Positions 7,514 to 49,928 of a stretch of 64,000 nt of DNA are shown here, piece after piece; positions within the stretch are counted from its first letter, which is position 1; each line of letters opens with the position of its first letter. Source of the DNA: a virus. Lineage: Duplodnaviria; Caudoviricetes. The translations under genes were made by a program, and so were the position numbers. The stretch spans positions 20,617-84,616 of IMG/VR virus record IMGVR_UViG_3300016263_001265. One strand, 5' to 3'. The notes below the pieces were generated by a model. The model was not told where the DNA came from. It was given only the letters and a program-made list of their open reading frames with translations, and made no database searches.

Positions 7514-7659
7514 TATTTTCTTTTTCGCCCATTCTTCTTCTTCTCAAGGTCTCGCTCTTCAAGCATAGACTTGGTGGCTGGAATCTCTCCGTTTTTTCTC
7601 ATCACCTTGCAGGGAATGCAAAAGCATGGCTGCTGGTGATAAAGCTCACGACTTGCCAT
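7513..7659 (-). CDS. small basic protein with CxCxxC (48 aa)
   Basis: Hand-translated MASRELYHQQPCFCIPCKVMRKNGEIP...KKKNGRKRK; overlaps the portal stop and the HNH start (TAATG). Confidence 0.5.
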   Translation of the reverse strand: MASRELYHQQPCFCIPCKVMRKNGEIPATKSMLEERDLEKKKNGRKRK

Positions 7660-9826
7660 TTCTTTCTTTCGCCTCGACAGATCTCATTACCTTGTTTGAC
7701 CATGCCTTCCCCGGGTCTCCGCCCCAGAGTGCCCAGGCGATTCTGCCAGCAGAGGGGAATCCCTTTTGGCCTGGTGCCCATCCCTCTCCGCGCTTGTCAA
7801 CCTCGTGCCTGGCAAGGTAAGAGCGCATCTTTCTAACTCTGGCAATCGTCATCTTGTTGCCGATGAGCATTCGTGCGGTCTGCTGGCCAGGGCCAATTCC
7901 TCCGCGGCCAAACTCTCTTCTCCAATCAAGGCCACGACGCGCTTCTGACTTGACCCCAGATGGCACGTTCAGGTTTATTCCGTCTGCGTTTTGCTTTTCA
8001 ACATTTGCAATATTTTTTGCATTCGGATAGGAGGCGGCATATGCCTTTGCGATCTCTTTGTCCTCGTCATAGAAGGCTACGATTTCGTATCCGTTTCTTG
8101 CCGCCTTCTGGGCCTCGTATCGCTTGAACTGCAGCGTTGCATCTGAAGGGAACGTGTTTGGAATGACCTCTTCTACCCTGATTCCGCAATCCTCCATCAT
8201 GCCCTTGACCGCTTCGTTGTCGATCTTTGACTTCGTGATCGCAATGACGTGAACACCGGCTTCGATGTACATGTCAATTTCATCTATGACCTCAGAGGGG
8301 CAGTTTTCGCTTGCCACGTCGTCTGACTCGATAATGATCGCGGACTTCTTTCCCGATTGCTGTCTTGCATTCATATCTGGATTTGGCCTTTCTTCAAGCT
8401 GGTCTTTTCCTTGTGCACCCGGGCCGCCCCTCTCGTTGCCGCCAGGGCCTGGCTCGCCACCAACAGGCTCTGGGTTGCTCGGGTCTCCAACCTTGCCCTT
8501 GAGGTACAGCTCGTAATACCTCAAAGGCATGTAGCCCAACGGGCTTGGCATCCAGATCTCGTTGCCCAAATCGCCAACGGAATCCTGTCCGCGCTCCTTG
8601 AGCGCGTCATTGAGCCTGAGCCACGGCAGGCCAGCAAGCGCTGCCTTGTAGTAGTCCGCAACCGCCTGTGCCGACTCCCTGCCGACATCCGTGTATACAA
8701 ACCTAAGGTTTTTGTCGTACAACCAGACGATCTCGCGGGTAATGTAATCCGCGATCAGCTCGCATAGCGGTGCGATACCGTTGTCGGCAGTGAATGCCGC
8801 GCCGTACTCGGATGTGCTCTTGTTAACGTCAAAGTTCAAGCCGATGTCTTGCGGCTGCACGCCAAACACGGCACAGATCTTCCTCGCGAGGTAGATCTGC
8901 CATTCCATGAACTGCATGTCGCGGTTTGACTGGGCCATTGGAATCCACTTAACGCCCTTACCACCACCAGTAATGGCCGTCTGGCTCTTTCCGGCAATTT
9001 CGCCTTCCCAATATGACTTGAATGCGTCGACCTGGTCTGGCCTCACGCCCTCGCCCAAATCGATAATTCCAGGAGGCGTTGCCTGCTCGACAATGTTGTT
9101 GTTGTATTTCGCGGCCCTAAGATCCGCCTCAATTGTCTCCGCAAGGACTTCCAGCGGTGAGAGCCCAAGCGGGGAATACGTTACCTTGTTGGCAACAATG
9201 ACAACCATCTCTTCGTTCTTGTATTCGGCAACGACCTTGCCGGTGTCGTCGTATTCGTAGTACCTTGGCTTCTTGATGTTTGAGCCGTCCCAATTTGGAT
9301 CAAAAGCAATCCTTGATCCGTCTTTTGGCCAAAGGTTTTTGATCGGGTCCGAAGACTTTCCGGCTCGCGCCCCGACCGTCAGCTCCTTTTCAATGCATCC
9401 CTGATCAAGAACAAGAATGTCTTCGACAATCGGCTCAATGAAAGATCTCCACGAATCCATTCTTGTATTTGGATCTCTTAAGAGCGTTTTAATCTTCTCT
9501 ACAGCAACTGCGTTTGGCGTATTTTCTCCGTCAACCGTGACAATGTCCCACCTGGCCCTGCTGATCTGCTGTCTTCTAAGATTGATGGCGGCACGAATCC
9601 AGGGGTTGTTTCGCGACCACTTTCGCAGCATGTTGACAGATCGTTTCTGCACTGCGCTTTGACCGGCACCTCGCGCGTACGGCTGCGCGTCATAATTAGG
9701 AATAAGAATTGCGTCTTTTATGGCCTCAACATCTGCTGCGGCTTGCGTTTCTGTTTGGGTGCGCTTAATGCGCTCCCACGGCATCATTACCACGTAATCT
9801 GCTCCTTCGGCTTTCTTGTTCGCCAA
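7646..9826 (-). CDS. portal protein with C-terminal accessory domains
   Basis: HK97-like portal motifs (GLSPLEVLAETI, PPGII, FKSYWE, DMQFMEWQIYLARKICAVFGVQPQDIG, LRLNDALKERG) followed by about 280 extra aa. Confidence 0.92.
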   Translation of the reverse strand: MANKKAEGADYVVMMPWERIKRTQTETQAAADVEAIKDAILIPNYDAQPYARGAGQSAVQKRSVNMLRKWSRNNPWIRAAINLRRQQISRARWDIVTVDGENTPNAVAVEKIKTLLRDPNTRMDSWRSFIEPIVEDILVLDQGCIEKELTVGARAGKSSDPIKNLWPKDGSRIAFDPNWDGSNIKKPRYYEYDDTGKVVAEYKNEEMVVIVANKVTYSPLGLSPLEVLAETIEADLRAAKYNNNIVEQATPPGIIDLGEGVRPDQVDAFKSYWEGEIAGKSQTAITGGGKGVKWIPMAQSNRDMQFMEWQIYLARKICAVFGVQPQDIGLNFDVNKSTSEYGAAFTADNGIAPLCELIADYITREIVWLYDKNLRFVYTDVGRESAQAVADYYKAALAGLPWLRLNDALKERGQDSVGDLGNEIWMPSPLGYMPLRYYELYLKGKVGDPSNPEPVGGEPGPGGNERGGPGAQGKDQLEERPNPDMNARQQSGKKSAIIIESDDVASENCPSEVIDEIDMYIEAGVHVIAITKSKIDNEAVKGMMEDCGIRVEEVIPNTFPSDATLQFKRYEAQKAARNGYEIVAFYDEDKEIAKAYAASYPNAKNIANVEKQNADGINLNVPSGVKSEARRGLDWRREFGRGGIGPGQQTARMLIGNKMTIARVRKMRSYLARHEVDKRGEGWAPGQKGFPSAGRIAWALWGGDPGKAWSNKVMRSVEAKERNGKS

Positions 9827-10026
9827 GATCTAATTGCACTAGTAATTGCTGTCTGATCAAGGTCTTTGTTTACAATCTGTCTAGCCTCTGTGTAATTGAA
9901 TGGTATCATACGAACCCCGTCTACCATTCCTATTCCGCGAAAAGATGGGAGCCTAGACCACCACTTTGGCACGACGTATCTCCCGTCTTCAAATTGCATT
10001 TCTACGCTTTCGCTGATATCAAGCAT
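9787..10026 (-). CDS. hypothetical protein
   Basis: ORF bridging the 10019-10558 gene and the portal. Confidence 0.45.
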   Translation of the reverse strand: MLDISESVEMQFEDGRYVVPKWWSRLPSFRGIGMVDGVRMIPFNYTEARQIVNKDLDQTAITSAIRSWRTRKPKEQITW

Positions 10027-10558
10027 TTTCCTCTTCGTCCTCGGACATCATTTCCGACAGTGCATCTGGAGATATGTCGAGCCTCGCAATATCTTCCGGA
10101 TCAAGGGGGTTTTCTTCCCTGAACTTTTTCCAAAAACCATCATAAACCTTATCATCCTCATCTGCCACCCTGACCAATTCTTCTTCAACATGCCTTTGAT
10201 ACTTGATCTGCTGGGGCACGCTTCTCTTGAGCCTTGCGAGAAGCTTGTGGCAGTCGGCACACACTGCGTACCGCTTTTGGCCCTTTGCCCTGGGGACCAT
10301 TGGCTCCGGTATCAGGTCAATCTCCATGTGGTCAGAGCCGACCATGATCGTGCACAGCGCGCACCTTGGGTGGGCCCTATGTATCTCCTCATACCTTTTC
10401 ATGATCGGGGTGAGGGTTTTCTGTATCTTCCTCATGGCAAGGACGACCTCAATGAGGCCGCTTTCGGCCTCGTTTAGCTCCTTGCACAGGCGGCACTTGA
10501 CTGCCGTTTTTTCACACATGCTGACAGTATACACATATCCATGCATCTTGTCTAACAT
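10019..10558 (-). CDS. hypothetical Zn-binding protein
   Basis: CRLC, CALC and CADC motifs with an acidic tail; first gene of the portal unit. Confidence 0.55.
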   Translation of the reverse strand: MLDKMHGYVYTVSMCEKTAVKCRLCKELNEAESGLIEVVLAMRKIQKTLTPIMKRYEEIHRAHPRCALCTIMVGSDHMEIDLIPEPMVPRAKGQKRYAVCADCHKLLARLKRSVPQQIKYQRHVEEELVRVADEDDKVYDGFWKKFREENPLDPEDIARLDISPDALSEMMSEDEEENA

Positions 10559-10718
10559 TTGGTGTATTATTATGCGTAGGAATCAATAGCCTTGAAATTT
10601 GAAGCTATTAGGGGGATTATTCAGTGGTGCTTATACGGGACTATCTACTGACACAGTCGTCTACCAGCCTGCCTGGTAGGCCTGTCCAAATAGCAACCAA
10701 TCACGGTAGCCGGGGGAT

Positions 10719-12779
10719 ATGATTTTGGACTTCAAGATTTACACCAACGCCCTTAAGGCATACGAGTCAGAAGAGGGTGAAAAGTTCGTTTCGGGAACCA
10801 CATCATCAACCATTAGGGATCTCCATGGAGACGAGATGTCTCTTGATGCCCTTAAGAGCATGGCGGACACCGCAAGACAGAACATGACGGTGTTTCTAAA
10901 TCACAACTACAATGTTCCAGAGGATCTTTTTGGCTCAGCTACAAGCGCAGATATTGTTAAGCGATACGACCAAGAAAGTGGCCAGGAAGTATATGACCTC
11001 GATCTCAACATCCGCGTTGTTGGCGAGGATGAAAACCCAGAGGCAATGCGAGCGTATCGCGCAATAAAGAGAGGCGTAAAGCTTGGATTGTCCATTGGCG
11101 CAAGAGTTGAGAAGGCAAAGAGAAAGGCCGCAGAAGATGGCAAACCTGAATCAATCTTGATTGAGAAAGTGAGGCTTCTCGAAGCCAGCGTTGTTGGCAT
11201 TCCAGCCAATCAGAGATCCTATCTGCAAAATGCCGTCAAGAGCCTGAAGTCTGCAACGGAAATTGACAGCGATGTCTTCGTTGACGAGCCGTCAGACGAG
11301 AAGGCCGCGAAGTACAGTGTTGGCGACATGGTTCGCTGGGGGTCAAGCGGCGGCGATGCCACCGGCAAGATCACAAAGATAGTTTCAAACGGCAAACTTG
11401 ATGTGCCAGGCTCTTCATTTACAATAAACGGAACACCAGATGACCCGGCCGTCTTGATCCGCGTCTACAGAGACGGAAAGCCAACAGAAACTCTTGTTGG
11501 CCACAAGATGTCAACTCTTAGAAGCGCCAAGGACGCTGTTGAGGTAATCGACTCGGTAAAGGCTGTTGAGGTTGAGGGTGAAACTTCCCCCGAGAAGGCG
11601 CCGCTTGTCGGTGCGCTTTACAACCTTCTTGCCGAGGCCACTGCATTCTATCTTAAGGCTCACGGCGCCCATTGGAATGTTATTGGCGATGACTTCGCCA
11701 CCTATCATGATCTTTTTGGTGAAATCTATGAGGATGTGCACGGGTCTCTTGATCCGATTGCAGAAAGCCTCAGAAAGCTCAACTCTCCGGCGCCCGCTGA
11801 GTTGAAGGATCTTGCCAGAATGACAGTTTCCAGCGAAATTGCCGAGGATTATGAGGCCGAGAGCCTTGCCGCGGCACTTTATGCTGCAAACGAGTCCCTT
11901 ATTGAGGTGATTATGGTTGCCTTCAAGGCTGCCACCGATCAAAACCAGCAAGGGATTGCAAACTTCCTGGCAGAGCGTCAGGACATGCACCAGAAGTGGT
12001 CATGGCAGCTTCGCTCCTCGCTTGCCGAGGAATCCGAAGAGGAAACCGACGGAGTGTCGGGTGAACAGTCCGATGAAAATAGCGACGAGCAGGAGAAAAA
12101 TATGGACAACGATTTGGAGAAGAAGACTCGCGTCACCGTCACGGTAAGCACCGACGGCGACGAGAAGCAGCCAGCGGCAGTCGCCGCGCAGCCAGAAGCA
12201 GCTGACCAGGATGTCACAGAGGACAAAGAAGAGGTCAAGGCTTCTGCTGAGCCGGGTGACGGCGAGGCGGCAGAAACTGTTGAAGAGGAAGTCGCGGCAG
12301 AGGAGACCGAGAAGGATCCATCTGTCGAGGCCCTTGAGGCGCTTGGCGCCACGCTTGTCGAAGCCGAGAAGTCGGCCGACGGCGAAAATGAATCGTCCGC
12401 ACAGCCAGAAGTGGCCGAGGCGGAAGTTGTTGCCGGGGCGGCCGAAGAGGTCGTTGCGGCGGCGGAGAATGTCGAGGCTGACGAGGCCCCGTCGATAGAC
12501 GAGGTTAAGTCAATCGCAAAGTCCGCTCTCGATGCAGCCAATGCTGCCCACGAGGAGGTCGCTGCCCTTTCGGCAAAGGTGACCGAACTTGCTGAGGCCA
12601 AGGCCAAGGTCGAAGAGGATCTTTCGAAGGCGCTGGACCTTATTGAGCGCATTAGCGCACTTGGGGTTGGCCGAAAGTCTTATGACCGTCCGCAGGAAGT
12701 TCGTGTGAAGTCACCGGAGCTTGCTCCGTGGCTGAGCCCATATGTACAGCGCGTTCTTGAAGCGCGCGATGAGGAGTAA
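10719..12779 (+). CDS. prohead protease-scaffold polyprotein with Tudor-like and Dps domains
   Basis: HK97-type protease motifs (RDLHGD, FLNHN, GLSIG, LLEASVVGIPAN) in the first ~175 aa; KYSVGDMVRW...VGHKMSTL domain; Dps motif HWNV...H...D-x-x-x-E; acidic coiled scaffold-like C-terminus. Confidence 0.92.
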   Translation: MILDFKIYTNALKAYESEEGEKFVSGTTSSTIRDLHGDEMSLDALKSMADTARQNMTVFLNHNYNVPEDLFGSATSADIVKRYDQESGQEVYDLDLNIRVVGEDENPEAMRAYRAIKRGVKLGLSIGARVEKAKRKAAEDGKPESILIEKVRLLEASVVGIPANQRSYLQNAVKSLKSATEIDSDVFVDEPSDEKAAKYSVGDMVRWGSSGGDATGKITKIVSNGKLDVPGSSFTINGTPDDPAVLIRVYRDGKPTETLVGHKMSTLRSAKDAVEVIDSVKAVEVEGETSPEKAPLVGALYNLLAEATAFYLKAHGAHWNVIGDDFATYHDLFGEIYEDVHGSLDPIAESLRKLNSPAPAELKDLARMTVSSEIAEDYEAESLAAALYAANESLIEVIMVAFKAATDQNQQGIANFLAERQDMHQKWSWQLRSSLAEESEEETDGVSGEQSDENSDEQEKNMDNDLEKKTRVTVTVSTDGDEKQPAAVAAQPEAADQDVTEDKEEVKASAEPGDGEAAETVEEEVAAEETEKDPSVEALEALGATLVEAEKSADGENESSAQPEVAEAEVVAGAAEEVVAAAENVEADEAPSIDEVKSIAKSALDAANAAHEEVAALSAKVTELAEAKAKVEEDLSKALDLIERISALGVGRKSYDRPQEVRVKSPELAPWLSPYVQRVLEARDEE

Positions 12780-12782
12780 AAA

Positions 12783-14018
12783 ATGTCTGAAGTAAGAGAG
12801 AAGCTTCAGGACGTTGCTAAGGGACTTGATTCCCTTAATGACGCCCCGATTGGCAGAGAAATCGATACGGAGAAGAAGTCATCGTTCGATCCCGCCGAGG
12901 CCTTCGCCGTTCAGCGCGAGCTTCGCAAGAAGTTCTCAAAGCTGTCGACGATCGAGCTCAACGAGATGCTCGATGTTCAGGCCTCGACCCAGGCTGGCAA
13001 GCAGGCTGACTCAGCCGTGCTCAATCAGCTTGCGATGTCGAACCCACAGATTGCAAAGGCCCTTGATAGCTCGGCCGGTACGGCGCTTATCCGCCAGGAC
13101 CTCGAGCCAATCCTTTACAGCCTGTTTGTAAAGAAGTTCCCGTTCTTTGAGCGCATCCGCAAGGAGCCTGCAAACGGCCTCGTGCATGCGTTCAACCAGC
13201 AGACCGCCTACGGCGACGCAGTCTTCCAGACGGAGACCGGCACCGTGACGGACGATACCGCGACCTACAGCCGCCAGACGACCAATGTGGCCGTTCTTGC
13301 GACCCGCCGTGGTATCACGCTCAAGAATCAGTTTGCGCTTGGCCAGGGCGGCTCGCCGTTCAATGGCCTTTCGCAGGAGCTTGGCAGCGGCGTGACCGCC
13401 ATTGCGCACAAGCTTCAGAAGACCCTGTTCCAGGGCAACGCAACCGTCACGGCGAGCGCCGGATCCAACACCGAGCTTGGTGCTTATGACGCCAACTCGT
13501 TTGATGGTCTCCGCAAGCTCCTCGGGACGGCCGCCTCGGCTGGCAACGAGATCGTTGGCAAGGGTACGGCTTCGTACCTCTCGACGATCAACACGGCCGT
13601 CGCTGGTGTTCTGGACAACGGTGGCGCTCCGTCGGCCATCGTCTGCACCCCAACCGACTACGCTGGCCTTGTAAACGAGCTTACAAACCTCGTCCGCTAC
13701 AATGCCCCGTCGCAGGTTGACCAGGCTGCAGGCGCAACCTTCGGTTCGGTTGTAACGGCTGCGGGTTCACTCCCGATTCTTGCCGTTCCAGGCGATGCCA
13801 TTGGTCAGTACGCAATCTCCAGCACGGACTACCGCGATCTTTACATCGTGGACGAATCCGGATGGTCGATGCCATACCTCGGATCTGACTCGATCACGAC
13901 GCTCGAGATTCCGATTGGTGTCAACGGTGCCCTTACGCGCCTCTACATCATGTATGTGATGTTCGGGTTTGCCAACAAGGCCCCGCAGTTCCAGGCGAAG
14001 GTTCGCGTCACGGTCTAA
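12783..14018 (+). CDS. major capsid protein (HK97 fold)
   Basis: 411 aa directly after the protease; LIRQDLEP, FDGLRKL, PSAIVCTP, F-x-N-K-A-P motifs; GC-rich codon usage. Confidence 0.92.
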   Translation: MSEVREKLQDVAKGLDSLNDAPIGREIDTEKKSSFDPAEAFAVQRELRKKFSKLSTIELNEMLDVQASTQAGKQADSAVLNQLAMSNPQIAKALDSSAGTALIRQDLEPILYSLFVKKFPFFERIRKEPANGLVHAFNQQTAYGDAVFQTETGTVTDDTATYSRQTTNVAVLATRRGITLKNQFALGQGGSPFNGLSQELGSGVTAIAHKLQKTLFQGNATVTASAGSNTELGAYDANSFDGLRKLLGTAASAGNEIVGKGTASYLSTINTAVAGVLDNGGAPSAIVCTPTDYAGLVNELTNLVRYNAPSQVDQAAGATFGSVVTAAGSLPILAVPGDAIGQYAISSTDYRDLYIVDESGWSMPYLGSDSITTLEIPIGVNGALTRLYIMYVMFGFANKAPQFQAKVRVTV

Positions 14019-15391: not shown

Positions 15392-15723
15392 TTCCTGGAG
15401 CTATGGCAAAGGTCACCCTTAAAAGAAAGGGCCTGTCAAGCCAGGCGGCAGACGGAACGCCCATCACAACAGAAGAGATCATTTGGATCAAGAATTGTCA
15501 CTATCAATCCCTGAGGGAAGACGGAAGCAGGGAGCGAGCAACGCCAACCGGACCGGCATCAAAGCAACTGTATCGATTTTGGACCCCGTACCTCACCGGA
15601 AGAGAGAGGCCAAAGGTAGACGACAGGATGGAAACGGAAGGCCTCGAATTCCGCGTCATTGCGCTGGACTTCGAGGCCATCCGACACCATCTTCTTATCA
15701 GAGCGGAACGAATCGAGCGTTAG
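15388..15723 (+). CDS. head closure (stopper) protein
   Basis: Overlaps the adaptor stop; VTLKR...PKVDDRM...FRVIALD pattern. Confidence 0.65.
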   Translation: MIPGAMAKVTLKRKGLSSQAADGTPITTEEIIWIKNCHYQSLREDGSRERATPTGPASKQLYRFWTPYLTGRERPKVDDRMETEGLEFRVIALDFEAIRHHLLIRAERIER

Positions 15724-16925
15724 CTAGTCCTGCATCTCAGGACCTTTAGGTCGTCCCATCCGTCTTTGCTTACAACAAGGGTAAGAATTCCCGCTGGGGC
15801 TTCAACGCCAGCCACCTCCTTGAACCACTGGGACCCACCATCAAGGCTTGGGGACTGGATGTGGGTCCTTGCACCGTGCGTTGCAACTGCAAGGTTGTGG
15901 TAGTGACCAGTAAGCAGCAGCGTCGCGTCTGAAACTGGCTGCATTCCAAGCGCCTGCCTTGCCCACCATCCCTCAATCTTCCCGACGGCATTTCCGCCGC
16001 CCCGTTTTGCCTGATGCCCGTGGGCAAGCGCAACAATCGTACCGTAAACGTCAAGCGTGACGGTAAGATCATTTTTGGGAATTATGAACTTGACGTGGCC
16101 ATACGCCTCTTGGTTTGCATCAAGTATCTCGGCAACCTGCTCAAATACGGCAACGTCGTCGTTGTCACCAAAAGAGGTAAACGCCTTGCCGCCTTTCCTG
16201 TTTTCACCATGATTTCCAGGAACGCAGGCAACAAGAATTTCAGGGGCAAATCGCGACCACTGGGTAATCGCCTTTGTGATAAGCCTTCTTGCAACCGTTA
16301 CCTGCTCTCTCCTGTCAAGGTCGGCCTGGAAGGCCTGCATGTCGTAGTGGCCATCGCAGTTCTCAATGATGTCACCGAGACCAACAACCACCAGCTTGGA
16401 GAGCGGCGTACCAGACTTTCTAAGATCTTTCCACCTGGACTCGACCTCGTTGATGCCAGCAAGGAATCTCTCGACAATCTTCTTGCTACCGCCGCCTTCA
16501 CCCTTTCCGAGCTGGAGGTCGGATATCGTAACCACGAGCGCAGAGCCGCCATCTTCTACAGACGGCCTTGAGAACTTGTGCTTTTTTATCTCGTCTATGA
16601 TTTCTTTTACTTCTGCGCCTGACTCTGCCGTCTTTCTTACAACCTTTCCCTTCCACTGCCTATTGAGAACGCCAAGCGTGTCTCCCCAAACATTGAAAAG
16701 AACTGGCTCAACAACTTCAAACTTTTCTGGGTCAAGACCCCAGACCTTGAGTACGGTGCTCCAGTCTGGCGCATTTTCTGCTGGCATACCAGTGGTTGTG
16801 ACAGTGCCTTCGTTTCCGTTCCACGTAACCCCTGGCTCCCAGCCCTCTGGGTGCTGTCTCTTTGGCCTTCTTTCAGCCTGCAGTTCTGTTTGTATTGCTT
16901 TTATCTCGTCTATCGGACTAGACAT
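15720..16925 (-). CDS. calcineurin-like metallophosphoesterase (MRE11-like of actinophages)
   Basis: SDLQLG, GLGDIIEN, PGNHGE, AHGH, GHYH motifs. Confidence 0.85.
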   Translation of the reverse strand: MSSPIDEIKAIQTELQAERRPKRQHPEGWEPGVTWNGNEGTVTTTGMPAENAPDWSTVLKVWGLDPEKFEVVEPVLFNVWGDTLGVLNRQWKGKVVRKTAESGAEVKEIIDEIKKHKFSRPSVEDGGSALVVTISDLQLGKGEGGGSKKIVERFLAGINEVESRWKDLRKSGTPLSKLVVVGLGDIIENCDGHYDMQAFQADLDRREQVTVARRLITKAITQWSRFAPEILVACVPGNHGENRKGGKAFTSFGDNDDVAVFEQVAEILDANQEAYGHVKFIIPKNDLTVTLDVYGTIVALAHGHQAKRGGGNAVGKIEGWWARQALGMQPVSDATLLLTGHYHNLAVATHGARTHIQSPSLDGGSQWFKEVAGVEAPAGILTLVVSKDGWDDLKVLRCRTS

Positions 16926-18605: not shown

Positions 18606-21600
18606 CTATTTCCTGTTTTCCAGTTCTGCGATCTTTGATTCGGCCAAAGAAAGTCTTGCCCTTGCGTCCTTTAGCGAGGATATCAGCGCATATGCAATCT
18701 GATAGATGTCTATTCCGGCAATCGTATCTTTTGTTTTTGGCGTCATGGCAGAAGGAAGAACGGACGCAATCTCTTGCGCGATTACGCCTATGGATACTCC
18801 CTCCTTTGAGGGGGTAAAGTACCCTTCTGACCTTACCTTTTCCAGATCCCACTCAAATGAGTATATGTTTATCTTGTCTATTGCCGAAGGGTCGATTTGA
18901 TACAAAGATATGTTTTTCTTATAGTCTGCGTCAGAAAACGAGTTGCTTGTGCTCAATGTGCCCCTAATCAGCAGGCCGCCGGTTTCATTCAAGACCATGT
19001 TTTTTGTCAGCGATGACCCGTTCCACTCGCCAAATGTTACCGACTCTCCGCTCGGAACAGCAAAGTCACCCTCTGCACCAGAGGCGGAAACATACAGTGC
19101 TGGCGCCCCACTTGGGTTCAAGTTGACGTTTTGCATAACCGCATCAACGGCTGTTAGCGTACCTCCGTTGCTTACGTCAAAGTTGCCTCCTATTGACAAG
19201 GAACCGCCTGTAATCGTAATGTCAGATGCGGAAACCGCCCCAGCAGTGTCTACGGTGAATGCATCGTTGATGTTGATTGATCCGCCAGTAATAGAGCCAC
19301 CTGTAACGTCAATATTTGCCGCCGTGACTGCACCTGAATTTGAAACCTGAAAATCACCGCTTCCAAAATTTATTCCGCCACCGGTTATTGTAATGTCACT
19401 CGCGGTTACCCTTCCGTCAAAGTCCACAGTGAAATTAGGGGAAGATATTGCAAGGTCGTCAACCTTGATTTCTACCGTTCCTGTGATTTGCGTCAAAGGA
19501 ACAGAGCCGCTTGAGTTGCTTGTAAACCTGATGACTCTGCCGTTTGACACCGTACCGTTCGTGTCGGACTGCGGGGTGATGTCGCCAGCGGATAGATTAA
19601 ACAGCCTTATAGTTCTTCCAGTTGTTGCCGATGCATACGGAGATATCGAGGTGAGTGAGACGGGCGTTGCCGCAGATGTCGCGTGCGTGTAGTTTATTGT
19701 CCTGTAGTTGTTGAACGAGCCACCGCTGGCAGATCCTGGCGTGACAAATGCGGCTGTCAGTCCTGATACAACCAGAGTCTTTCCGTTGTCAACTTTTGCC
19801 CCAGACAAAACCTGCGTATCAGACACTGGAACTAGTGCCACGGGCGAACCACCAGTTCCAGCAGATATTGGAAGTGTATAGGTTACAGAACAGTAGTTTG
19901 TCGCGTACGCCGCAGTCGTTGTGGCAATGTTTATGTTTGAACCGGCAGCAAGATACACATAGAAGTTTTTCCCAGTGTCGGCAATCCCAGACGCCGCTGT
20001 CAATGCAACGTTTGGCGTGTTTAGCGAGTATGTGAATGTGCTTGGATTGTTTCCAGAAGGAACGGTTGCAATAAACGATCCGCTGTACGGGACGGGCAGG
20101 CCGGTGATTTTCACCGTGTCGCCGCTCAATATACCATGCGCCATTGCCGTTGTTATTGTAACCACGTTGCTCGTGACTTGATATGATATTATGCTTGCTC
20201 CGGTTCCAACAACCTTTTTCCCTCCGTTGTAGTCACTGGCGGCACCAGAAATAGAAACGTAGTCTCCGTTTTTAAATGCAACGGGGGTAGATGTAGAAAA
20301 TATACCGTATCTTACCGGCGGAGTAGAGTCGTATACAGCGATTGCAAACGTGGCGACTGTATCTGATGGGGTATATGCCCATACACCTGGATCGTCTGAT
20401 GTTGCTGTTGTCAGGGTTTTTGTTGCAAGTGCAATTGTTGCGTTTGTTCCGGAAGTGTTTGTTCCATGTTTGGAAAAACCAAGAAGTGAGTATCCTGCAG
20501 GTGGCGTTACCGAGGTGACGTTTACGTCGTCAATTGCAAGCCCGGTGAGGATGACTGCGTTCTGCGTTGATCCAGGAACAGTTACAAGACCGGGATCAAC
20601 AGTATTGCCAGTGTTGACATACGTAGAAAGAGCAATCGTTCTTCCGGAACCGCTAGACCTAAAGACCTGGGTTCTTGCGACTGTTGCGGTGCTTGTCCCG
20701 GTGACTACAAGGGTTGGAACCGTTACGCCCGATTGAACAGTGTAAGAAAACAGAGAAACAGAAGGATCTGATCCACCTGTATTTGATCCAACCTTTACCC
20801 ACCCAACGCTTGTCGTTGCGTGCTGTGTTCCAGTGCTTTCGTCAGATGCAACCGCGCAAACAATGAGGTCTCCAACCTTGAGATCTGCTGCCGCTGGAGG
20901 CGTAACCTGCACAGATGTCGTACCAGTTGCCTGAGTTGTCAAACCGGAAACCACGCTTATTGACGGAGGAACAGAAGAAATATTGAAAGCTTGCGTCCTT
21001 ATGATTGGAGAGTCTGTCCTTGTTGCGGTAAAAACCCCGTCATACGGAGACCCAAGGCCAGAAACCACTATCGTCTCGTTTGCCGATATTCCGTGATACC
21101 TTGAAGTTCTTATCGTGGCAACGTTTGATACTCGGGAATAGTCTTCGACCGCAGATCCAAAGTCATGCGCTGTCCTGGTGCCATTTATTCCGGCAGTTCC
21201 TGTTGCAAGGATTTCAACGGAGTCTCCAGAGACAACCGAATGGGGAGTCGTAGAAACAAGAGTTGCGTACGTGTCTTGTCCTTGCGTCGGGACAAGGTCT
21301 GTGCCGAGGGCAGTCGGTACTCCCTGCGCCTTGAGCGCAGTGGCGTTCAATATGCTTCCTATGGACGTGGCTGTCGTGTTGGCGTCTGTGTCTGCACCCG
21401 TTATTGTTACCGAGTTTCCAGAGTCAAAGGCGTGCCAGTTGAGCGTTCTTACCGACACGGCTGATCCCCACTTGGTTTTGTGGGTAACGTCTTCGTCGGT
21501 GTGCTCAGCCGGAACGTCGGTCAGATTCATCGACGTATCTATTCCAGTTATCGTCACAAGCTGACCAGGAGATATTGCGTGTTCCTGGTTAAGCGATATT

Positions 21601-24600
21601 GCTCCTGTGGTACCGTTTTTTGCCTTTCTTGAGGTTGGAACGCTTAGTTCAGATATCGTTCTCGCCCCGTCAAATCCAGTCCCGGCTCCAGCGATGTTGA
21701 TGGTAAGCCCTGTCTCTGTAACACCATGTTCTCTTAGCGTCCAAACAGTCGCGTTGCTTCCGGATCTGTACTTGTAATAAAGGGTTCTTGTTCCAAGCGT
21801 TTCACCCCACCTGTTGTCTATGGTAATTTTCCCAGCCTTGAGTACCGATGCGTCTATTCCCGCAGCAGAAATAAGTCCCGTTGTGATAGAGCCAACAACA
21901 ACGTCTGAGGTGTTGATTGCGTTTTCCCAGGTCGTTCCCCCAACGGCAACCTTCCGCAGGCCAGGCGGCGTTCCGCCAAGGTGATACACGATCATTCCCT
22001 CTGGATATCTTGCCCTTAGCGCAGCACTGTTTGCTATGTCTGGCAAATCGCTTCCAGATATGATTTGAAGCGGTCTGAGGCTTGATTCAAGTTTATCAAT
22101 TGTTATAGATCCGTCTCCAATGTCAATTTGCGTTGCGTTGGGGGTTGTTGGATTTGTCGGATCTGAGTATTTACTGAATGTTCCATCTGTTGATATGGCC
22201 CTTACCCTATATCGATACTGAAGAGCCGTTATCAAGCCAGTGTCGTTTGCATACGTTGCATTTGTGTTTTGAATTGTTCTAAAGTCGTTGAAGTTGTAGT
22301 AGGCATATCCGTCTACGTCTACGCTGTCTATTGTTCCGCTTTCCAGGCAAACGTATTCAAAGCTGTTTGTGTACGTTTGTGAAACTACCCACTGGCCGTT
22401 TAAGGATAAAATGCTTTCGTCTTCTGAGTCTATCTCTATTCTAACTGTGTCATTTGCAACCATTCCGTGTGGAGTCTCTGTTTCAACCGTAACAGTTGAT
22501 CCCGAGCGAGAAACGGTAGCTATTTCCTTGAATATTGCGTCTTGCCTTTGAAGCTCAAACGAAGAAAGGTTTTTGTTTATTTCAACATCTTGATCAAATC
22601 TCCAGGAAAGAGATATCATTTTTTCGTTTGCGGAAACGGTCACATCCGTTGGTGTGTCCGGAACTGGCGGAACTGGATTTACATCGTCAAGCTCTTTTAT
22701 CTTTTCGCTCAGGCGTATAAACGCGCTTCTCTGAAGGCGGATGTCGCCGCCGACCGTGATCGTATAGACGACATCCATTCCCATCATTCTCGCCTGCACC
22801 GACTTGACAATAAGCGGCTTGGCAACGCCAACAAGCGTCCACAGGAAAGGTATTACCTGGCCAACTTCAGGTACAGGGTAGGTTGAGCCAGATGCGCTTG
22901 ATGGGCGCATCTCAAAGGTATACGATTCGATCGGCAAGCCGTTTTCTTTCCAGAAACCTTCTGCGGCAAGTTCTGCATCCTCAAGGGTTTCTACCCTTTC
23001 GTCGGTGATTGCCGCCTCAACTATCTTCCCGTTTGTTGCCCATATTCCTGGAACAAAGTCGTAGTCGACATACTGTACTGGATTTCCGCTGCCGTCTGTC
23101 AGCGCGACCTTGTTTCCGTTTTCGTCTTTTGTCCTGAAAACGGCGTACAGATGAAGCCTGTTTACCGATGCGCCAGACTCTACCGGGCTGCTTGGAACTT
23201 CCATCTCGTAAACTGGGACAGCGTATGAAACAGAGTCCTCAAAGTCGCCATATGCCATTTGGCCAGTAATTTCTATTGCACTCCAGTCGGTAAACGATGC
23301 AGATCCGTGTTGCTGGGTCGTGCATGTCCCCCTCAGGCCAAATGAAACAGCATTGGCAGGAACTTCAACAATCTTCCAGATTCTTTCCCAAGAATGAACC
23401 GATTCTCCAGTGAGGTTTCCTATATGAGTTGAACTTATCTCTGCCCCGGCAGAGTTGTACCAATCAACATATGCGCCCCATCTATTTTGATGATCTGATA
23501 CATGCCCCCTGACGGAAACAAAATACTTTTTCCCAACAGATGTAGGGACTCTTTTGTCTGTTGATGTCTCTATTGACGTGTTGGACGTGCTTGATAGAAC
23601 CGTGTATCCGTGGCCGTATGGGCCGCTTGTTGACGATTGCAACGAAAACCCAGAGGCGGTTGTCCACCCGTCGATGTTTCCATCGTACATCCCGTTGAAC
23701 ACAAGCTCTTTCGGAGTCTTTGCTCGATAGTGCAGTTTGCAAGAGTAGTTACCAGACCCGTCTAGCTGCCCCCTGTCTACCCAGTATTCTGCACCTGTTT
23801 TTTCTGATATGTAGTCAAGAACGTTCCTAACAGTTCTTCCTCCGTACTGCTCGGCATTTGCAGTATCGCTCTCTGGAAGATACGGGCTAAATCGATACTG
23901 CGTGTCTACTGCCTCAACTGCTGACGTAACGTCTAGCCCTATCTGGGAAAGCCAGGTTTTTTCAAAAAGACCGCCAAACACGGAAACCGGATATAGCCAA
24001 CTTCTGATGTTGTCTTTTCCAACGCCAAGCCTGTAGTAGCCGCTGTCAAACCAGTTTCCGGAAAGAGTTTGCGTGCTGGCTGGAGTTGAGGCTGGCGAGG
24101 TCAGTTTGTACATTTCGCCGTCCGCGTATCCACGGGGTGATCCGTAGTAGATATCCTCTGGTGATTGCGTGGTCGAGTACGAGGATATATATGCTGCGCC
24201 GCCAGACGATAGAATTGCGTTTGTTATTGAGGCGGCACCGTCTTCACCGTTGTTTTTGTATGTGATCCTGTTTTGCGCTGGAACGCTGTTGATAACCACA
24301 TAATCTTCAATCGCAACGGAAAATCCTGGAGTCTGAGGAATGCTAACAACAATCGGGTCTCCAACCGAAAGGCCGTGAGAAGACTCTGTTTGAATTGTTA
24401 CTATGTTTGAAGATCTTGATGCCGATGTTATCTTGATCGAAGAAAGAAGCGCCCTCGACTCTCTTGCCAGATAACTTTCGCTTGAAGACCCACTTCCGGC
24501 AGTTTTTACTATATAAATCCTGTGCCTATTTGCGTTTCCTGCGGTTTTCCACTTTACCTTGATGCTTTGAGTTGAGGTCCCGGCCGAAAGCGTAATTGTA

Positions 24601-25262
24601 TACGGCTTTGTAACTGGACCAATTTGTGGCGCCTGACCGTCTCTTCCTGGGATTGTTGTTGACAGCGCTTGCGCCCTGATCTCATATGTTCCGTCCGTAA
24701 GAGAGCCGCCAGTAGACTGCGATGTCGCCGAGAGACCGTCAACCTGGCCAACAACAGCAGGAAGGGCGCCAGCGAGGGTGTATGTCGTCTCTGTGCTGCC
24801 GGTGATGATATCAATGTCTCTCGAGTCTCTTGGCGCGTAATAGTCGGCAACAATGTGCTCTTCAAGCATCGCAGTGTTGTCGGCGCATTCAATATTCTGA
24901 GTTACCGTTCCACCTTCTCTTGATGTTGAAACCCTGGTGACCACGCCAGAAAACAAGACGGTGTCTGGAGATGTTGAGGTATCAAATATGATGACTTCTG
25001 TCTTGTTTGGGATTTCAATGACAAAAGACTCGTCAAGTATTGCCGCATTAAGCTTGTCTGCAAACGTCGCCCCAGAGTAGTCGTATACCGTCCCTTGGTA
25101 TGCTGGCAATATTGTCCACAGCTTTATCGTGGCTGTTGCGCTTGTTCCCTCGCTATTGCTTTCCCAGCTCAGGTTTTCGTAGTCGACGCGCGGGCTGATG
25201 TCATAGAAAGCCTGGGTCTGCCCCTCGTACTTAAGCCGAGCAAATATCTTTACCGTTGCCAT
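18606..25262 (-). CDS. central tail fibre/hub protein with FN3, carbohydrate-binding-like, FCCH-like repeat domains and C-terminal S74 chaperone
   Basis: Directly after the tape measure; S74 motif SDADYKKNI...IGVIAQEI...coiled coil; FN3 YRYRVRAIS; repeated T-x-x-x-HG-x-x-x-GD-x-V-x-I-x-G. Confidence 0.85.
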   Translation of the reverse strand: MATVKIFARLKYEGQTQAFYDISPRVDYENLSWESNSEGTSATATIKLWTILPAYQGTVYDYSGATFADKLNAAILDESFVIEIPNKTEVIIFDTSTSPDTVLFSGVVTRVSTSREGGTVTQNIECADNTAMLEEHIVADYYAPRDSRDIDIITGSTETTYTLAGALPAVVGQVDGLSATSQSTGGSLTDGTYEIRAQALSTTIPGRDGQAPQIGPVTKPYTITLSAGTSTQSIKVKWKTAGNANRHRIYIVKTAGSGSSSESYLARESRALLSSIKITSASRSSNIVTIQTESSHGLSVGDPIVVSIPQTPGFSVAIEDYVVINSVPAQNRITYKNNGEDGAASITNAILSSGGAAYISSYSTTQSPEDIYYGSPRGYADGEMYKLTSPASTPASTQTLSGNWFDSGYYRLGVGKDNIRSWLYPVSVFGGLFEKTWLSQIGLDVTSAVEAVDTQYRFSPYLPESDTANAEQYGGRTVRNVLDYISEKTGAEYWVDRGQLDGSGNYSCKLHYRAKTPKELVFNGMYDGNIDGWTTASGFSLQSSTSGPYGHGYTVLSSTSNTSIETSTDKRVPTSVGKKYFVSVRGHVSDHQNRWGAYVDWYNSAGAEISSTHIGNLTGESVHSWERIWKIVEVPANAVSFGLRGTCTTQQHGSASFTDWSAIEITGQMAYGDFEDSVSYAVPVYEMEVPSSPVESGASVNRLHLYAVFRTKDENGNKVALTDGSGNPVQYVDYDFVPGIWATNGKIVEAAITDERVETLEDAELAAEGFWKENGLPIESYTFEMRPSSASGSTYPVPEVGQVIPFLWTLVGVAKPLIVKSVQARMMGMDVVYTITVGGDIRLQRSAFIRLSEKIKELDDVNPVPPVPDTPTDVTVSANEKMISLSWRFDQDVEINKNLSSFELQRQDAIFKEIATVSRSGSTVTVETETPHGMVANDTVRIEIDSEDESILSLNGQWVVSQTYTNSFEYVCLESGTIDSVDVDGYAYYNFNDFRTIQNTNATYANDTGLITALQYRYRVRAISTDGTFSKYSDPTNPTTPNATQIDIGDGSITIDKLESSLRPLQIISGSDLPDIANSAALRARYPEGMIVYHLGGTPPGLRKVAVGGTTWENAINTSDVVVGSITTGLISAAGIDASVLKAGKITIDNRWGETLGTRTLYYKYRSGSNATVWTLREHGVTETGLTINIAGAGTGFDGARTISELSVPTSRKAKNGTTGAISLNQEHAISPGQLVTITGIDTSMNLTDVPAEHTDEDVTHKTKWGSAVSVRTLNWHAFDSGNSVTITGADTDANTTATSIGSILNATALKAQGVPTALGTDLVPTQGQDTYATLVSTTPHSVVSGDSVEILATGTAGINGTRTAHDFGSAVEDYSRVSNVATIRTSRYHGISANETIVVSGLGSPYDGVFTATRTDSPIIRTQAFNISSVPPSISVVSGLTTQATGTTSVQVTPPAAADLKVGDLIVCAVASDESTGTQHATTSVGWVKVGSNTGGSDPSVSLFSYTVQSGVTVPTLVVTGTSTATVARTQVFRSSGSGRTIALSTYVNTGNTVDPGLVTVPGSTQNAVILTGLAIDDVNVTSVTPPAGYSLLGFSKHGTNTSGTNATIALATKTLTTATSDDPGVWAYTPSDTVATFAIAVYDSTPPVRYGIFSTSTPVAFKNGDYVSISGAASDYNGGKKVVGTGASIISYQVTSNVVTITTAMAHGILSGDTVKITGLPVPYSGSFIATVPSGNNPSTFTYSLNTPNVALTAASGIADTGKNFYVYLAAGSNINIATTTAAYATNYCSVTYTLPISAGTGGSPVALVPVSDTQVLSGAKVDNGKTLVVSGLTAAFVTPGSASGGSFNNYRTINYTHATSAATPVSLTSISPYASATTGRTIRLFNLSAGDITPQSDTNGTVSNGRVIRFTSNSSGSVPLTQITGTVEIKVDDLAISSPNFTVDFDGRVTASDITITGGGINFGSGDFQVSNSGAVTAANIDVTGGSITGGSININDAFTVDTAGAVSASDITITGGSLSIGGNFDVSNGGTLTAVDAVMQNVNLNPSGAPALYVSASGAEGDFAVPSGESVTFGEWNGSSLTKNMVLNETGGLLIRGTLSTSNSFSDADYKKNISLYQIDPSAIDKINIYSFEWDLEKVRSEGYFTPSKEGVSIGVIAQEIASVLPSAMTPKTKDTIAGIDIYQIAYALISSLKDARARLSLAESKIAELENRK

Positions 25263-49394: not shown

Positions 49395-49928
49395 ATGGGA
49401 AAGCCGGGCAGAAAACCACAAGCGCAAATAGACGCCTTACGGGAGCAGATTACGCAACTGCTCCTAAACGGCGTGCCTACCGCCCAGATAGCAAAGGCAA
49501 CCGACCTTTCCGTTCATACCGTTAGGGAGCACATCAGAAACATAAGAAAAAAGTGGTCTGAGGATCAGCCAGATCAAACCCTTACCAGGGCAGAGTTGAT
49601 CCAAAAGGCAAGGATGATCGGACAGCAGGCGGCTGTTGGGGCGTCAAAGGCAAGGGGGTCAGCCATGGAAATTCAGTATCTCAAAATTCAAATTGAGATT
49701 TTAGACAAAGTTGCAAAACTTACGGGGGCATACGCTCCGGTTCGGCAAGAGGTCAGCGGGGTCGATGGTGGCGCAATAGAAATCTCCAAGACACCGCACG
49801 AAATTGACAACCTGACAGCAGCCGAACTTTCGGATCGGCTTTTTGTTTGGGCAGAGCAACTAGAAGAGGCGTCTAAGGGTGCAGAAAACGAAACAAAGCA
49901 AATCACGTCAGACACCACCTCCAACTAA
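49395..49928 (+). CDS. terS: terminase small subunit
   Basis: N-terminal HTH, helical core, EVSGVDGGAIEI C-terminal motif; upstream of TerL; probable leaderless ATG at 49395. Confidence 0.75.
   Translation: MGKPGRKPQAQIDALREQITQLLLNGVPTAQIAKATDLSVHTVREHIRNIRKKWSEDQPDQTLTRAELIQKARMIGQQAAVGASKARGSAMEIQYLKIQIEILDKVAKLTGAYAPVRQEVSGVDGGAIEISKTPHEIDNLTAAELSDRLFVWAEQLEEASKGAENETKQITSDTTSN

Follow-up and report, generated by a model that had tools for sequence, protein, structure and literature searches.

Accessory domains fused to the portal and to a protease-scaffold protein suggest cis-loading of the head in an uncultured freshwater phage

Introduction

Why do two head-assembly proteins of a phage carry accessory domains within their own chains, and what becomes of those domains in the head? 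The question is raised by a 64,000-nucleotide stretch of DNA (positions 20,617 to 84,616 of IMG/VR record IMGVR_UViG_3300016263_001265, which has 84,616 bases), referred to below as the window. Its source is a freshwater phage with a long tail and a genome of about 85 kb, which has not been cultured. In its head module, the portal protein carries a HAD-like domain and a domain that we call AWALWGG, and a protein that begins with an S78 prohead protease and ends in a predicted scaffold carries a Tudor domain and a Dps domain. The original prediction, made from the letters of the window, held that the protease may cut both proteins after Lys residues at the domain junctions and thereby load discrete cargo domains into the head.

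Our overall reading, which we favor slightly, is that two proteins whose place in the procapsid interior is obligatory have acquired accessory domains. The parts of this reading differ in strength. Cis-loading of cargo is well supported by comparisons of sequence, and entry of the passengers into the prohead is highly probable. Cleavage at the junctions could in our judgment fall either way, and retention of the passengers in the virion is conceivable but somewhat doubtful.

A protease-scaffold gene with exchangeable cassettes

The protease-scaffold gene (10719-12779, plus strand) codes for 686 residues. Ahead of its scaffold region it contains three domains:

10719-11258, plus strand: S78 prohead protease, residues 1-180 (Pfam Peptidase_S78, PF04586, E = 1.5e-7 over residues 55-176)
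11313-11528, plus strand: Hva1-type Tudor cassette, residues 199-270 (Pfam Hva1_TUDOR, E = 4.9e-8 over residues 202-254)
11601-12029, plus strand: Dps (mini-ferritin) cassette, residues 295-437 (PDB 8ff9; Pfam Ferritin, E = 7.7e-8 over residues 299-436)

The Peptidase_S78 match scores 32.1 bits against a curated cut-off of 21, and NCBIfam proheadase_HK97 matches at 2.7e-11 with 43.8 bits, below the model cut-off of 59. Residues H62, S125 and E155 of the protease are invariant across 25 aligned sequences. A sequence search of the PDB matched no solved S78 enzyme. The two cassettes, predicted sizes 7.6 kDa (Tudor) and 15.8 kDa (Dps), lie where the original prediction had placed a Tudor-like and a Dps domain; the Dps domain aligns with PDB 8ff9 at 1.2e-19 across 145 residues. 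Its ferroxidase positions (H-W-N-V...H and D-x-x-A-E) align with those of solved Dps proteins and are conserved in relatives. These ligands are intact, and the domain is acidic (net charge -13, isoelectric point (pI) 4.6) and lacks a Lys-rich tail. The Dps domain probably sequesters iron and consumes peroxide, protecting DNA that is packaged or newly injected.

We compared this gene with its relatives, all of which are metagenomic. A word-indexed search with the protease-scaffold protein gave 561 homologues at E ≤ 0.001 among 8,000 scored candidates, and a pattern scan of IMG/VR gave 134 relatives, of which the best 80 were retained as loci. The 120 listed database proteins and the full-length open reading frames (ORFs) of the loci made up 187 sequences, which deduplication reduced to 162 distinct proteins; the sample is biased in that the 120 are the top matches to a Dps-bearing query. 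By single linkage the 162 proteins form 16 clusters at 90% protease-domain identity and 6 at 80%.

The two ends of these proteins are constant and the middle is not. The protease domain always comes first, and a common C-terminal domain comes last except in P0098, P0110 and one truncated form. Between them we found 15 cassette architectures among the 162 proteins, which is what the survey for domain shuffling proposed in the original prediction yields for this gene. The commonest middles are Tudor-Dps (54), Dps (30), Tudor (24), Dps with a second Tudor-like domain (17), Tudor with Tudor2 (12) and Tudor-Dps-Tudor2 (11). P0090 and P0097 have nothing between the protease and the C-terminal domain. 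The Tudor cassette is missing in close relatives such as P0009, the Dps cassette is absent or deleted in some relatives, and in P0038 and P0113 remnants of a Dps that was deleted can still be seen. Eleven clusters (at least 90% protease identity) have more than one member, and each of these contains 2 to 7 architectures. The cassettes thus come and go quickly and are dispensable for assembly. The comparison supports the view that this gene carries cassettes which are shuffled and can be done without. A search of the open-access literature found no paper on Dps or Tudor within a protease-scaffold gene or on DUF2945 in phage heads.

A fifth passenger type, 'KLPFAD', was seen in some relatives (P0018, P0084 and P0095; loci L003 and L007). 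It spans about 125 residues, replaces Tudor or flanks Dps on either side, and has no Pfam match at E < 0.01.

A predicted scaffold gene nested in the protease gene

The last third of the protease-scaffold gene has the features of a gene within a gene, with an in-frame internal ribosome-binding site and start:

12091-12104, plus strand: predicted nested scaffold start, with AGGAG at 12091-12095, a 6-nucleotide spacer and ATG at 12102-12104 (Met462)
12102-12779, plus strand: predicted nested scaffold of 225 residues (residues 462-686), with E-K-K-T-R-V-T-V-T-V, an acidic linker (including E-V-K507-A-S) and a coiled-coil-like C-terminal domain

Met462 is in frame and five codons upstream of the E-K-K-T-R-V-T-V-T-V block. 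Its signal resembles that of the capsid gene (GAGGAG, TAAAAA, ATG) and is far better than the start of the long form itself. The nested scaffold has a net charge of -37. Its C-terminal domain contains I-A-K601-S-A-L-D and L-S-K637-A-L-D and has the tail P-W-L-S-P-Y; AKSALD is found in 160 of the 162 proteins and [PT]WL.P in 156.

The internal start is conserved. The TRVTV block is present in 40 distinct relatives. In 30 of them an in-frame Shine-Dalgarno (SD) sequence (AGGAG, AAGGAG or GGAG) and ATG or GTG lie at most 16 codons upstream of it. The remaining 10 have AGGAG, 6 nucleotides and ATG 28 codons upstream. The signal is kept despite differing residues between clades (Q-E-K-N-M, V-E-N-S-M, E-G-D-T-I-V and others). 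Relatives without the block have a homologous SD and start in 7 of 11 cases, and by the same criteria none was found in the other 4. Elsewhere in these genes such sites occur at a background of 0.6% per codon, or about 9% per 16-codon window, and the linker of 40 portals, which served as a negative control, contains no conserved internal start. Two database ORFs, P0392 and P0396, begin at the homologous Met; they stand on very short contigs that probably start inside the gene and so lend weak support.

The gene thus looks like lambda C/Nu3 or Mu I/Z, with a predicted long form that joins protease, cargo and scaffold and a predicted short form that is scaffold only. All of the passengers in this gene lie in the part that only the long form has. 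The weak start of the long form against the strong start of the short form suggests that each head would receive few long forms. The nested start also bears on one of the proposed cleavage junctions. L-E-K-K/T-R-V recurs in 130 of 162 proteins and is in that sense conserved, but it lies five codons after the internal start and coincides with the N-terminus of the nested scaffold, so cleavage is not required to explain its conservation.

Two further observations belong here. P0400, a scaffold-like protein of 355 residues on a 29-kb contig, has an unrelated 40-residue N-terminus before its E-D-E-E-T-E-M stretch; in this relative the scaffold may be encoded by a gene of its own. In the window, a second in-frame ATG (11913-11915, Met399) stands behind GAGGTGAT inside the Dps domain; its occurrence is probably due to chance.

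Lys junctions before the cassettes and in the capsid protein

We then asked whether the boundaries of the domains share a signal that the protease might read. The junctions before the two cassettes and the two parts of the capsid protein (gene 12783-14018, 411 residues) are as follows:

11301-11312, plus strand: junction K195-A-A-K198 before Tudor
11559-11600, plus strand: junction K281-A-V-E-V-E-G ... E-K293-A before Dps; the motif [KE][AES][VLF][EDPA][VIA]EG is found in 126 of 162 proteins
12783-13058, plus strand: delta-like N-terminal region of the capsid protein, residues 1-92, ending I90-A-K92 / A-L-D; the SU10_MCP match begins at residue 98
13059-14018, plus strand: mature major capsid protein (HK97 fold, SU10 type; Pfam SU10_MCP, E = 9.2e-10 over residues 98-401)

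Junctions were counted by anchoring each cassette start and looking for Lys followed by Ala or Ser (K[AS]) at most 16 residues upstream; 10 of 282 cassettes could not be anchored. The dipeptide precedes Tudor in 107 of 111 cases, Dps in 112 of 113, Tudor2 in 42 of 42 and KLPFAD in 6 of 6, a total of 267 of 272. At the places of the DEKAAK/YSVG and PEKA/PLVG junctions named in the original prediction, K[AS] is thus present before nearly every anchored Tudor and Dps cassette. As a control, K[AS] is present in 32% of all 16-residue windows and in 22% of those in the acidic scaffold linker. Since the dipeptide is this common by chance, the bare presence of a Lys means little; its conservation exceeds chance. 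An unanchored pattern for the junction after the protease (159 of 162) proved worthless, as it also matches a K-S in the last helix of the protease, and was replaced by the anchored count.

The capsid protein has a similar site. I-[ATS]-K-[AL]-L-D is present in 39 of 39 aligned proteins, judged by eye, five residues before the S-x-G-x-A-L-I-R that opens the SU10 domain. Cleavage after K92 is predicted to remove the 92-residue delta-like region. The proposed IAKA/LDS junction is thus conserved throughout the aligned capsid proteins; TEKKS, a second site proposed in the capsid N-terminus, is confined to the window's own clade and falls in a gap in other clades. Because the junction dipeptide also stands at the predicted capsid maturation site and at two scaffold sites, the protease is a probable candidate for cutting there.

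The portal protein and its C-terminal extension

The portal gene (7646-9826, minus strand) would code for 726 residues from a TTG start:

8492-9826, minus strand: portal core, residues 1-445 (Pfam Phage_portal, E = 1.4e-39 over residues 76-410)
8342-8491, minus strand: Pro/Gly/Gln-rich hypervariable linker, residues 446-495, ending S-G-K493-K494-S (alignment of 40 portals)
8012-8341, minus strand: degenerate HAD-like domain, residues 496-605 (HAD models match relatives only)
7649-8011, minus strand: AWALWGG domain, residues 606-726 (phrog_2859, E = 1.9e-19; basic)

The core also matches PDB portal 8q7d at 1.3e-12. The TTG has no ribosome-binding site, and a GTG at 9793, 11 codons downstream (residue 12), lies behind AAGGAG. 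This GTG is probably the true start, and the 715-residue length of the database cluster of the portal (P0121) agrees with it.

The extension is fixed. A portal is present in 78 of 80 loci, and all 40 distinct full-length portals (the window's included), which are 709-740 residues long, align to the end of the window's protein; the protein database holds 2,943 portal-type matches. Shuffling of domains between portal and protease genes, for which the original prediction had suggested looking, is thus absent within the clade. Within the linker, a Lys occurs among the last 8 residues before the HAD-like domain in 40 of 40 portals, as expected of the proposed SGKK/SA junction, and Lys makes up 2.9% of the rest of the linker. 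In many portals of a distant clade this is the sole Lys of the roughly 51-residue linker. The possibility that the extension is a nested, separately translated gene was considered and rejected, since no SD and start are conserved in the linker of the 40 portals.

Both extension domains lie where the original prediction had placed them, but the HAD-like domain is recognizable only through relatives. Among 30 relatives the models matched are LNS2 (15, best 1.3e-4), HAD_PNKP (6), Acid_phosphat_B (3), Hydrolase_3 (3) and Hydrolase_6 (2), and the window's copy matches no HAD model. HAD phosphatases have a motif I of the form D-x-D-x-T/V with a nucleophile Asp; the window's copy reads E-S-D-D-V, and the distant clade reads D-I-D-G-T. 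In that clade (L005, L007 and others; portal residues about 500-600) D-I-D-G-T-L-T is kept and the domain matches PNKP-phosphatase and acid-phosphatase HAD models. The distant clade may carry an active phosphatase on its portal, of which the window's clade would retain a dead copy.

The AWALWGG domain has the highest conservation of the whole portal, with 46 of 121 columns invariant in 18 sequences at 61-87% identity. It has a net charge of +13 and a pI of 11.1; its probable role is to bind nucleic acid at the portal or to leave the head together with the DNA. The domain belongs to no Pfam family; a Pfam search at E ≤ 10 gave nothing meaningful for either portal passenger, and a profile of the portal-extension alignment matched no PDB chain below E 0.65.

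AWALWGG and its partners in other phages

We searched 1.84 billion representatives with an AWALWGG profile and obtained 3,764 clusters at E ≤ 0.001, 2,100 at 1e-10 and 273 at 1e-30. The domain occurs at the N-terminus, in the middle or at the C-terminus of proteins, in up to 3 copies. Three stretches each are found in P0243 (1453 residues), P0317 (1588 residues) and P0356 (1184 residues), which may be tandem-copy virion proteins of the polyvalent type.

For a census of partners, 78 of the 148 best matches were scanned with Pfam (at least 300 residues, in rank order, within a size limit). Prohead proteases were found as Peptidase_S78 (18), Mu-like_Pro (5), S78_2 (2), CLP_protease (2) and SDH_protease (2), and portal or MuF proteins as Phage_portal (12), Portal_Mu (6), Phage_portal_2 (4), Phage_portal_3 (2) and Phage_Mu_F (5). 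Its fusion partners thus include MuF, four families of portal and five of prohead protease. Capsid models matched 2 of the 78. Other passengers on the same proteins were InPase (3), DUF6582 (3), DUF5824 (3), NUDIX (1) and Ferritin (1), together with HAD models.

Cultured phages also carry the domain: it is found in 38 records, where the annotations of the genes concerned are capsid maturation protease, prohead protease, major capsid or minor head protein. Roseobacter phage CRP-811 gp45 has the order AWALWGG-Tudor-S78-capsid, and this polyprotein must be processed to yield capsid protein. Synechococcus phage S-CBS3 gp04 is AWALWGG-S78-capsid and Pontimonas phage phiPsal1 gp006 is AWALWGG-S78. 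In Limnohabitans phage DC31, AWALWGG is fused to an XkdF-type protease and a Tudor domain is on the next gene. As judged from these architectures in unrelated phages, the same passengers ride every kind of protein that is obligatorily inside the prohead, and some of the carriers are polyproteins that require cleavage.

The ESM Atlas has no entry for the window's own sequence; a stand-alone homologue (P0260) led there only to unnamed viral clusters, one with Hva1_TUDOR in 36% of its members and one with S78_2 in 18%; we treat these as leads only. No paper on the AWALWGG motif was found in a search of the open-access literature.

A model for loading and the alternatives

These observations are consistent with the following model. 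The internal ribosome-binding site and Met462 would give an abundant short form consisting of scaffold only. By analogy, the shared scaffold C-terminus, with its coiled-coil-like region and P-W-L-S-P-Y tail, would bind the interior of the capsid protein shell, and long and short forms would co-assemble. If the scaffold part co-assembles with the capsid protein, the long form, and hence its cassettes, is drawn into the prohead. The S78 protease would then cut at or near the Lys-Ala/Ser junctions, at capsid K92 and at the scaffold sites. Linkers and scaffold would be digested and leave as small acidic fragments, and the folded Tudor and Dps domains would remain with the DNA. At the portal, 12 copies of HAD-AWALWGG would face the interior, where they may stay tethered at the inner portal mouth or be freed at K493/K494.

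Several points weigh against this model. The short scaffold form is itself predicted from sequence, and the Lys-Ala/Ser cleavage rule is an analogy with HK97. A pattern shared by capsid and scaffold speaks for the model, with only 3 matches in the 128,000 six-frame residues of the window, all of them in these two proteins, but it was composed after two of its matches were known. The proposed VEKQ/NADG junction between HAD-like domain and AWALWGG has a Lys in 36 of 40 portals, but the register varies and no Lys is fixed. AWALWGG is never lost and is the most conserved part of the portal, which fits a built-in role in assembly or DNA handling better than optional cargo, and Dps could be degraded or expelled with the scaffold. 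No close relative in culture came out of protein searches of 50,697 phage records: the protease-scaffold protein matched 6 records, none with 80% query coverage, and the portal matched 397, with the portal core alone aligned among the matches listed. Finally, the relatedness of the sampled proteins (16 clusters at 90%) makes our counts overstate the number of independent events.

One alternative is that the extra domains are working assembly parts that stay attached, rather than cargo. In this view a crown on the inner side of the portal, made of AWALWGG and the HAD remnant, would handle the DNA end or dock the protease, Dps would be a 12-valent hub that clusters the protease-scaffold, and Lys-Ala/Ser would be a habit of linkers or a recombination joint rather than a cleavage site. 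The fixed portal extension, the basic character of AWALWGG, the absence of a fixed Lys at its junction with the HAD-like domain, and its place in the census always beside a portal, protease or MuF protein and never outside them all speak for this. Yet Tudor and Dps are missing in close relatives (P0090 and P0097) and so are dispensable for assembly, AWALWGG elsewhere lies N-terminal of the protease and in polyproteins that need cleavage, and a shared Lys-Ala/Ser junction stands ahead of cassettes of four unrelated kinds and agrees with the site predicted in the capsid protein. We consider the proposal unlikely, though deserving of attention. A different proposal is that the cassettes act only in the infected cell, before or during assembly, for example Dps against oxidative stress, and that they are fused for the sake of co-expression and afterwards lost by destruction or expulsion along with the scaffold. 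Self-digestion and digestion of the scaffold are common among prohead proteases, which suits it, as do a free Dps gene in Synechococcus phage S-SRM01 and the published view that free Dps genes of phages code for enzymes of benefit to the infected host (Benler et al. 2021, PMC8008677). Fusion to a protease-scaffold, however, puts the domain inside the shell, and late-gene timing is poorly suited to protecting the cytoplasm. The same passengers also ride on portals and MuF, which are virion proteins, and conserved junctions suggest release instead of wholesale degradation. This proposal is quite improbable. That the fusions are artefacts of assembly or gene calling (missed stops, frameshifts or chimeric contigs) is scarcely credible. 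The window does come from an assembled metagenome, and either TTG or GTG could be the portal start, but hundreds of independent contigs of differing origin have these reading frames open as well (the 561 homologues, the 134 IMG/VR relatives and the 2,943 portal-type matches).

Comparison with known systems

The closest counterparts of the protease-scaffold gene are lambda C/Nu3 and Mu I/Z, in which the protease is N-terminal and the scaffold is the same-frame C-terminal part with an internal ribosome-binding site and start. The nested lambda genes were reportedly described by Shaw and Murialdo in 1980. As in those systems, a shared C-terminus would bring the protease into the prohead. Unlike lambda, whose C protease is of a different type, the phage of the window has an S78 protease of the HK97 type, folded domains between the protease and the nested start, and a capsid protein with a delta-like N-terminal region of its own. 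HK97 gp4 has catalytic His and Ser residues, cuts the capsid protein after Lys103 and uses its C-terminal tail as a capsid-targeting signal. The protease studied here shares with it the S78 family and a conserved tail at the C-terminus, and here too a Lys precedes the N-terminus predicted for the mature capsid protein; the HK97 enzyme is small and stands alone, without scaffold or passengers.

The fusion of Dps and Tudor in cis is a variation on known strategies, namely T4 internal proteins, effector fusions to portal or MuF, and encapsulin cargo. The T4 and phiKZ head proteases cleave after Glu, whereas the rule here would be cleavage after Lys, and the T4 targeting peptide is short and N-terminal. 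T4 internal proteins and the ejection proteins of phiKZ and SPN3US are described as being loaded in the prohead, trimmed by the head protease and kept with the DNA (PMC9026906, PMC10052503, PMC7411985). In those phages the cargo is encoded by separate genes with propeptides, whereas here it is fused in cis to the protease-scaffold and the portal. The passengers sit inside the protease-scaffold chain and at the C-terminal end of the portal, and would work like T4-type internal proteins without belonging to them.

For effector domains such as PBECR, 2H and InPase that are fused to portal or MuF, packaging and injection have been predicted (Iyer et al. 2017, PMC5512222), and the same paper proposes zincin-type metallopeptidases for their processing. 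The portal of the window resembles such polyvalent, portal-fused effectors in that it places two accessory domains, HAD-like and AWALWGG, on a packaged module. The resemblance extends to the census, in which InPase co-occurs with AWALWGG in 3 of 78 proteins and MuF and NUDIX are also found. The main text of PMC5512222 contains 0 occurrences of Dps, Tudor or WGG and leaves the prohead protease as a carrier unmentioned; AWALWGG may nevertheless be among the 40 new domains of Iyer et al. 2017.

Encapsulins hold ferritin-like cargo in HK97-fold shells, and engineered P22 particles have been loaded through fusions to the scaffold protein (PMC8939255). Ferroxidase-type cargo, an HK97-fold shell and a C-terminal segment that binds the shell interior are common to these systems and to our model. 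The phage of the window differs from encapsulins in having a portal, a large terminase and a tape measure, so that it packages DNA and the likeness is one of analogy only. In addition, the cargo is Dps and not encapsulated ferritin, and targeting would rely on an entire scaffold domain, where encapsulin cargo has a short peptide.

Genomic setting

The head module has the portal gene and a Cys-rich ORF on the minus strand and the protease-scaffold, capsid, a small ORF and a head-tail adaptor on the plus strand. The intervening ORF is as follows:

10019-10558, minus strand: Cys-rich ORF of 179 residues between portal and protease, with several C-x-x-C pairs (context only)

This ORF has a homologue in 79 of 80 related loci and matches no Pfam or PHROG family. 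A nucleotide search of the region against the 50,697 phage records matched nothing. The large terminase (49879-51339) lies elsewhere in the window, and a tape measure protein of 3,474 residues is encoded at 25263-35687 on the minus strand; the presence of both identifies the phage as long-tailed. Residues about 1731-1835 of the latter match tape measure families. The next gene (18606-25262, minus strand) codes for a protein of 2,218 residues with no PHROG match, and the two large proteins point to a tail of unusual length with a giant protein at its distal end. An SbcD/Mre11-like exonuclease gene (15720-16925, minus strand; phrog_284, 7.5e-68) lies within the structural region, on the opposite strand to the head-tail adaptor genes that it directly follows.

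Implications

Beyond T4, P1 and the giant phages, little is known of the proteins that travel in phage heads. Comparative sequence points to a simple cis-loading route in which exchangeable cargo stands between a protease and a nested scaffold, and the arrangement recurs in several hundred metagenomic contigs at least. AWALWGG is among the more widespread uncharacterized head-associated domains and now has a defined context in portal, prohead protease and MuF proteins. The junction rule yields concrete peptides to seek in metaproteomes, and Roseobacter phage CRP-811, Synechococcus phage S-CBS3, Pontimonas phage phiPsal1 and Limnohabitans phage DC31 are cultured carriers of the passengers.

A broader proposal is that a large group of freshwater phages loads folded cassettes delimited by Lys-Ala/Ser, fused between head protease and nested scaffold, as a general practice, that the Dps-bearing head is an encapsulin-like shield of the DNA against iron and peroxide, and that AWALWGG is a universal DNA-end or ejection protein inside the heads of tailed phages. 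We offer it as speculation that is on the unlikely side. If Dps does travel within the shell, nature would have its own parallel to encapsulins and to the nanoreactors engineered from P22, and the phage would provide a living link between phage capsids and ferritin-loaded encapsulins. A Dps in that place would also bear on the decay of viruses by iron and peroxide in sunlit waters.

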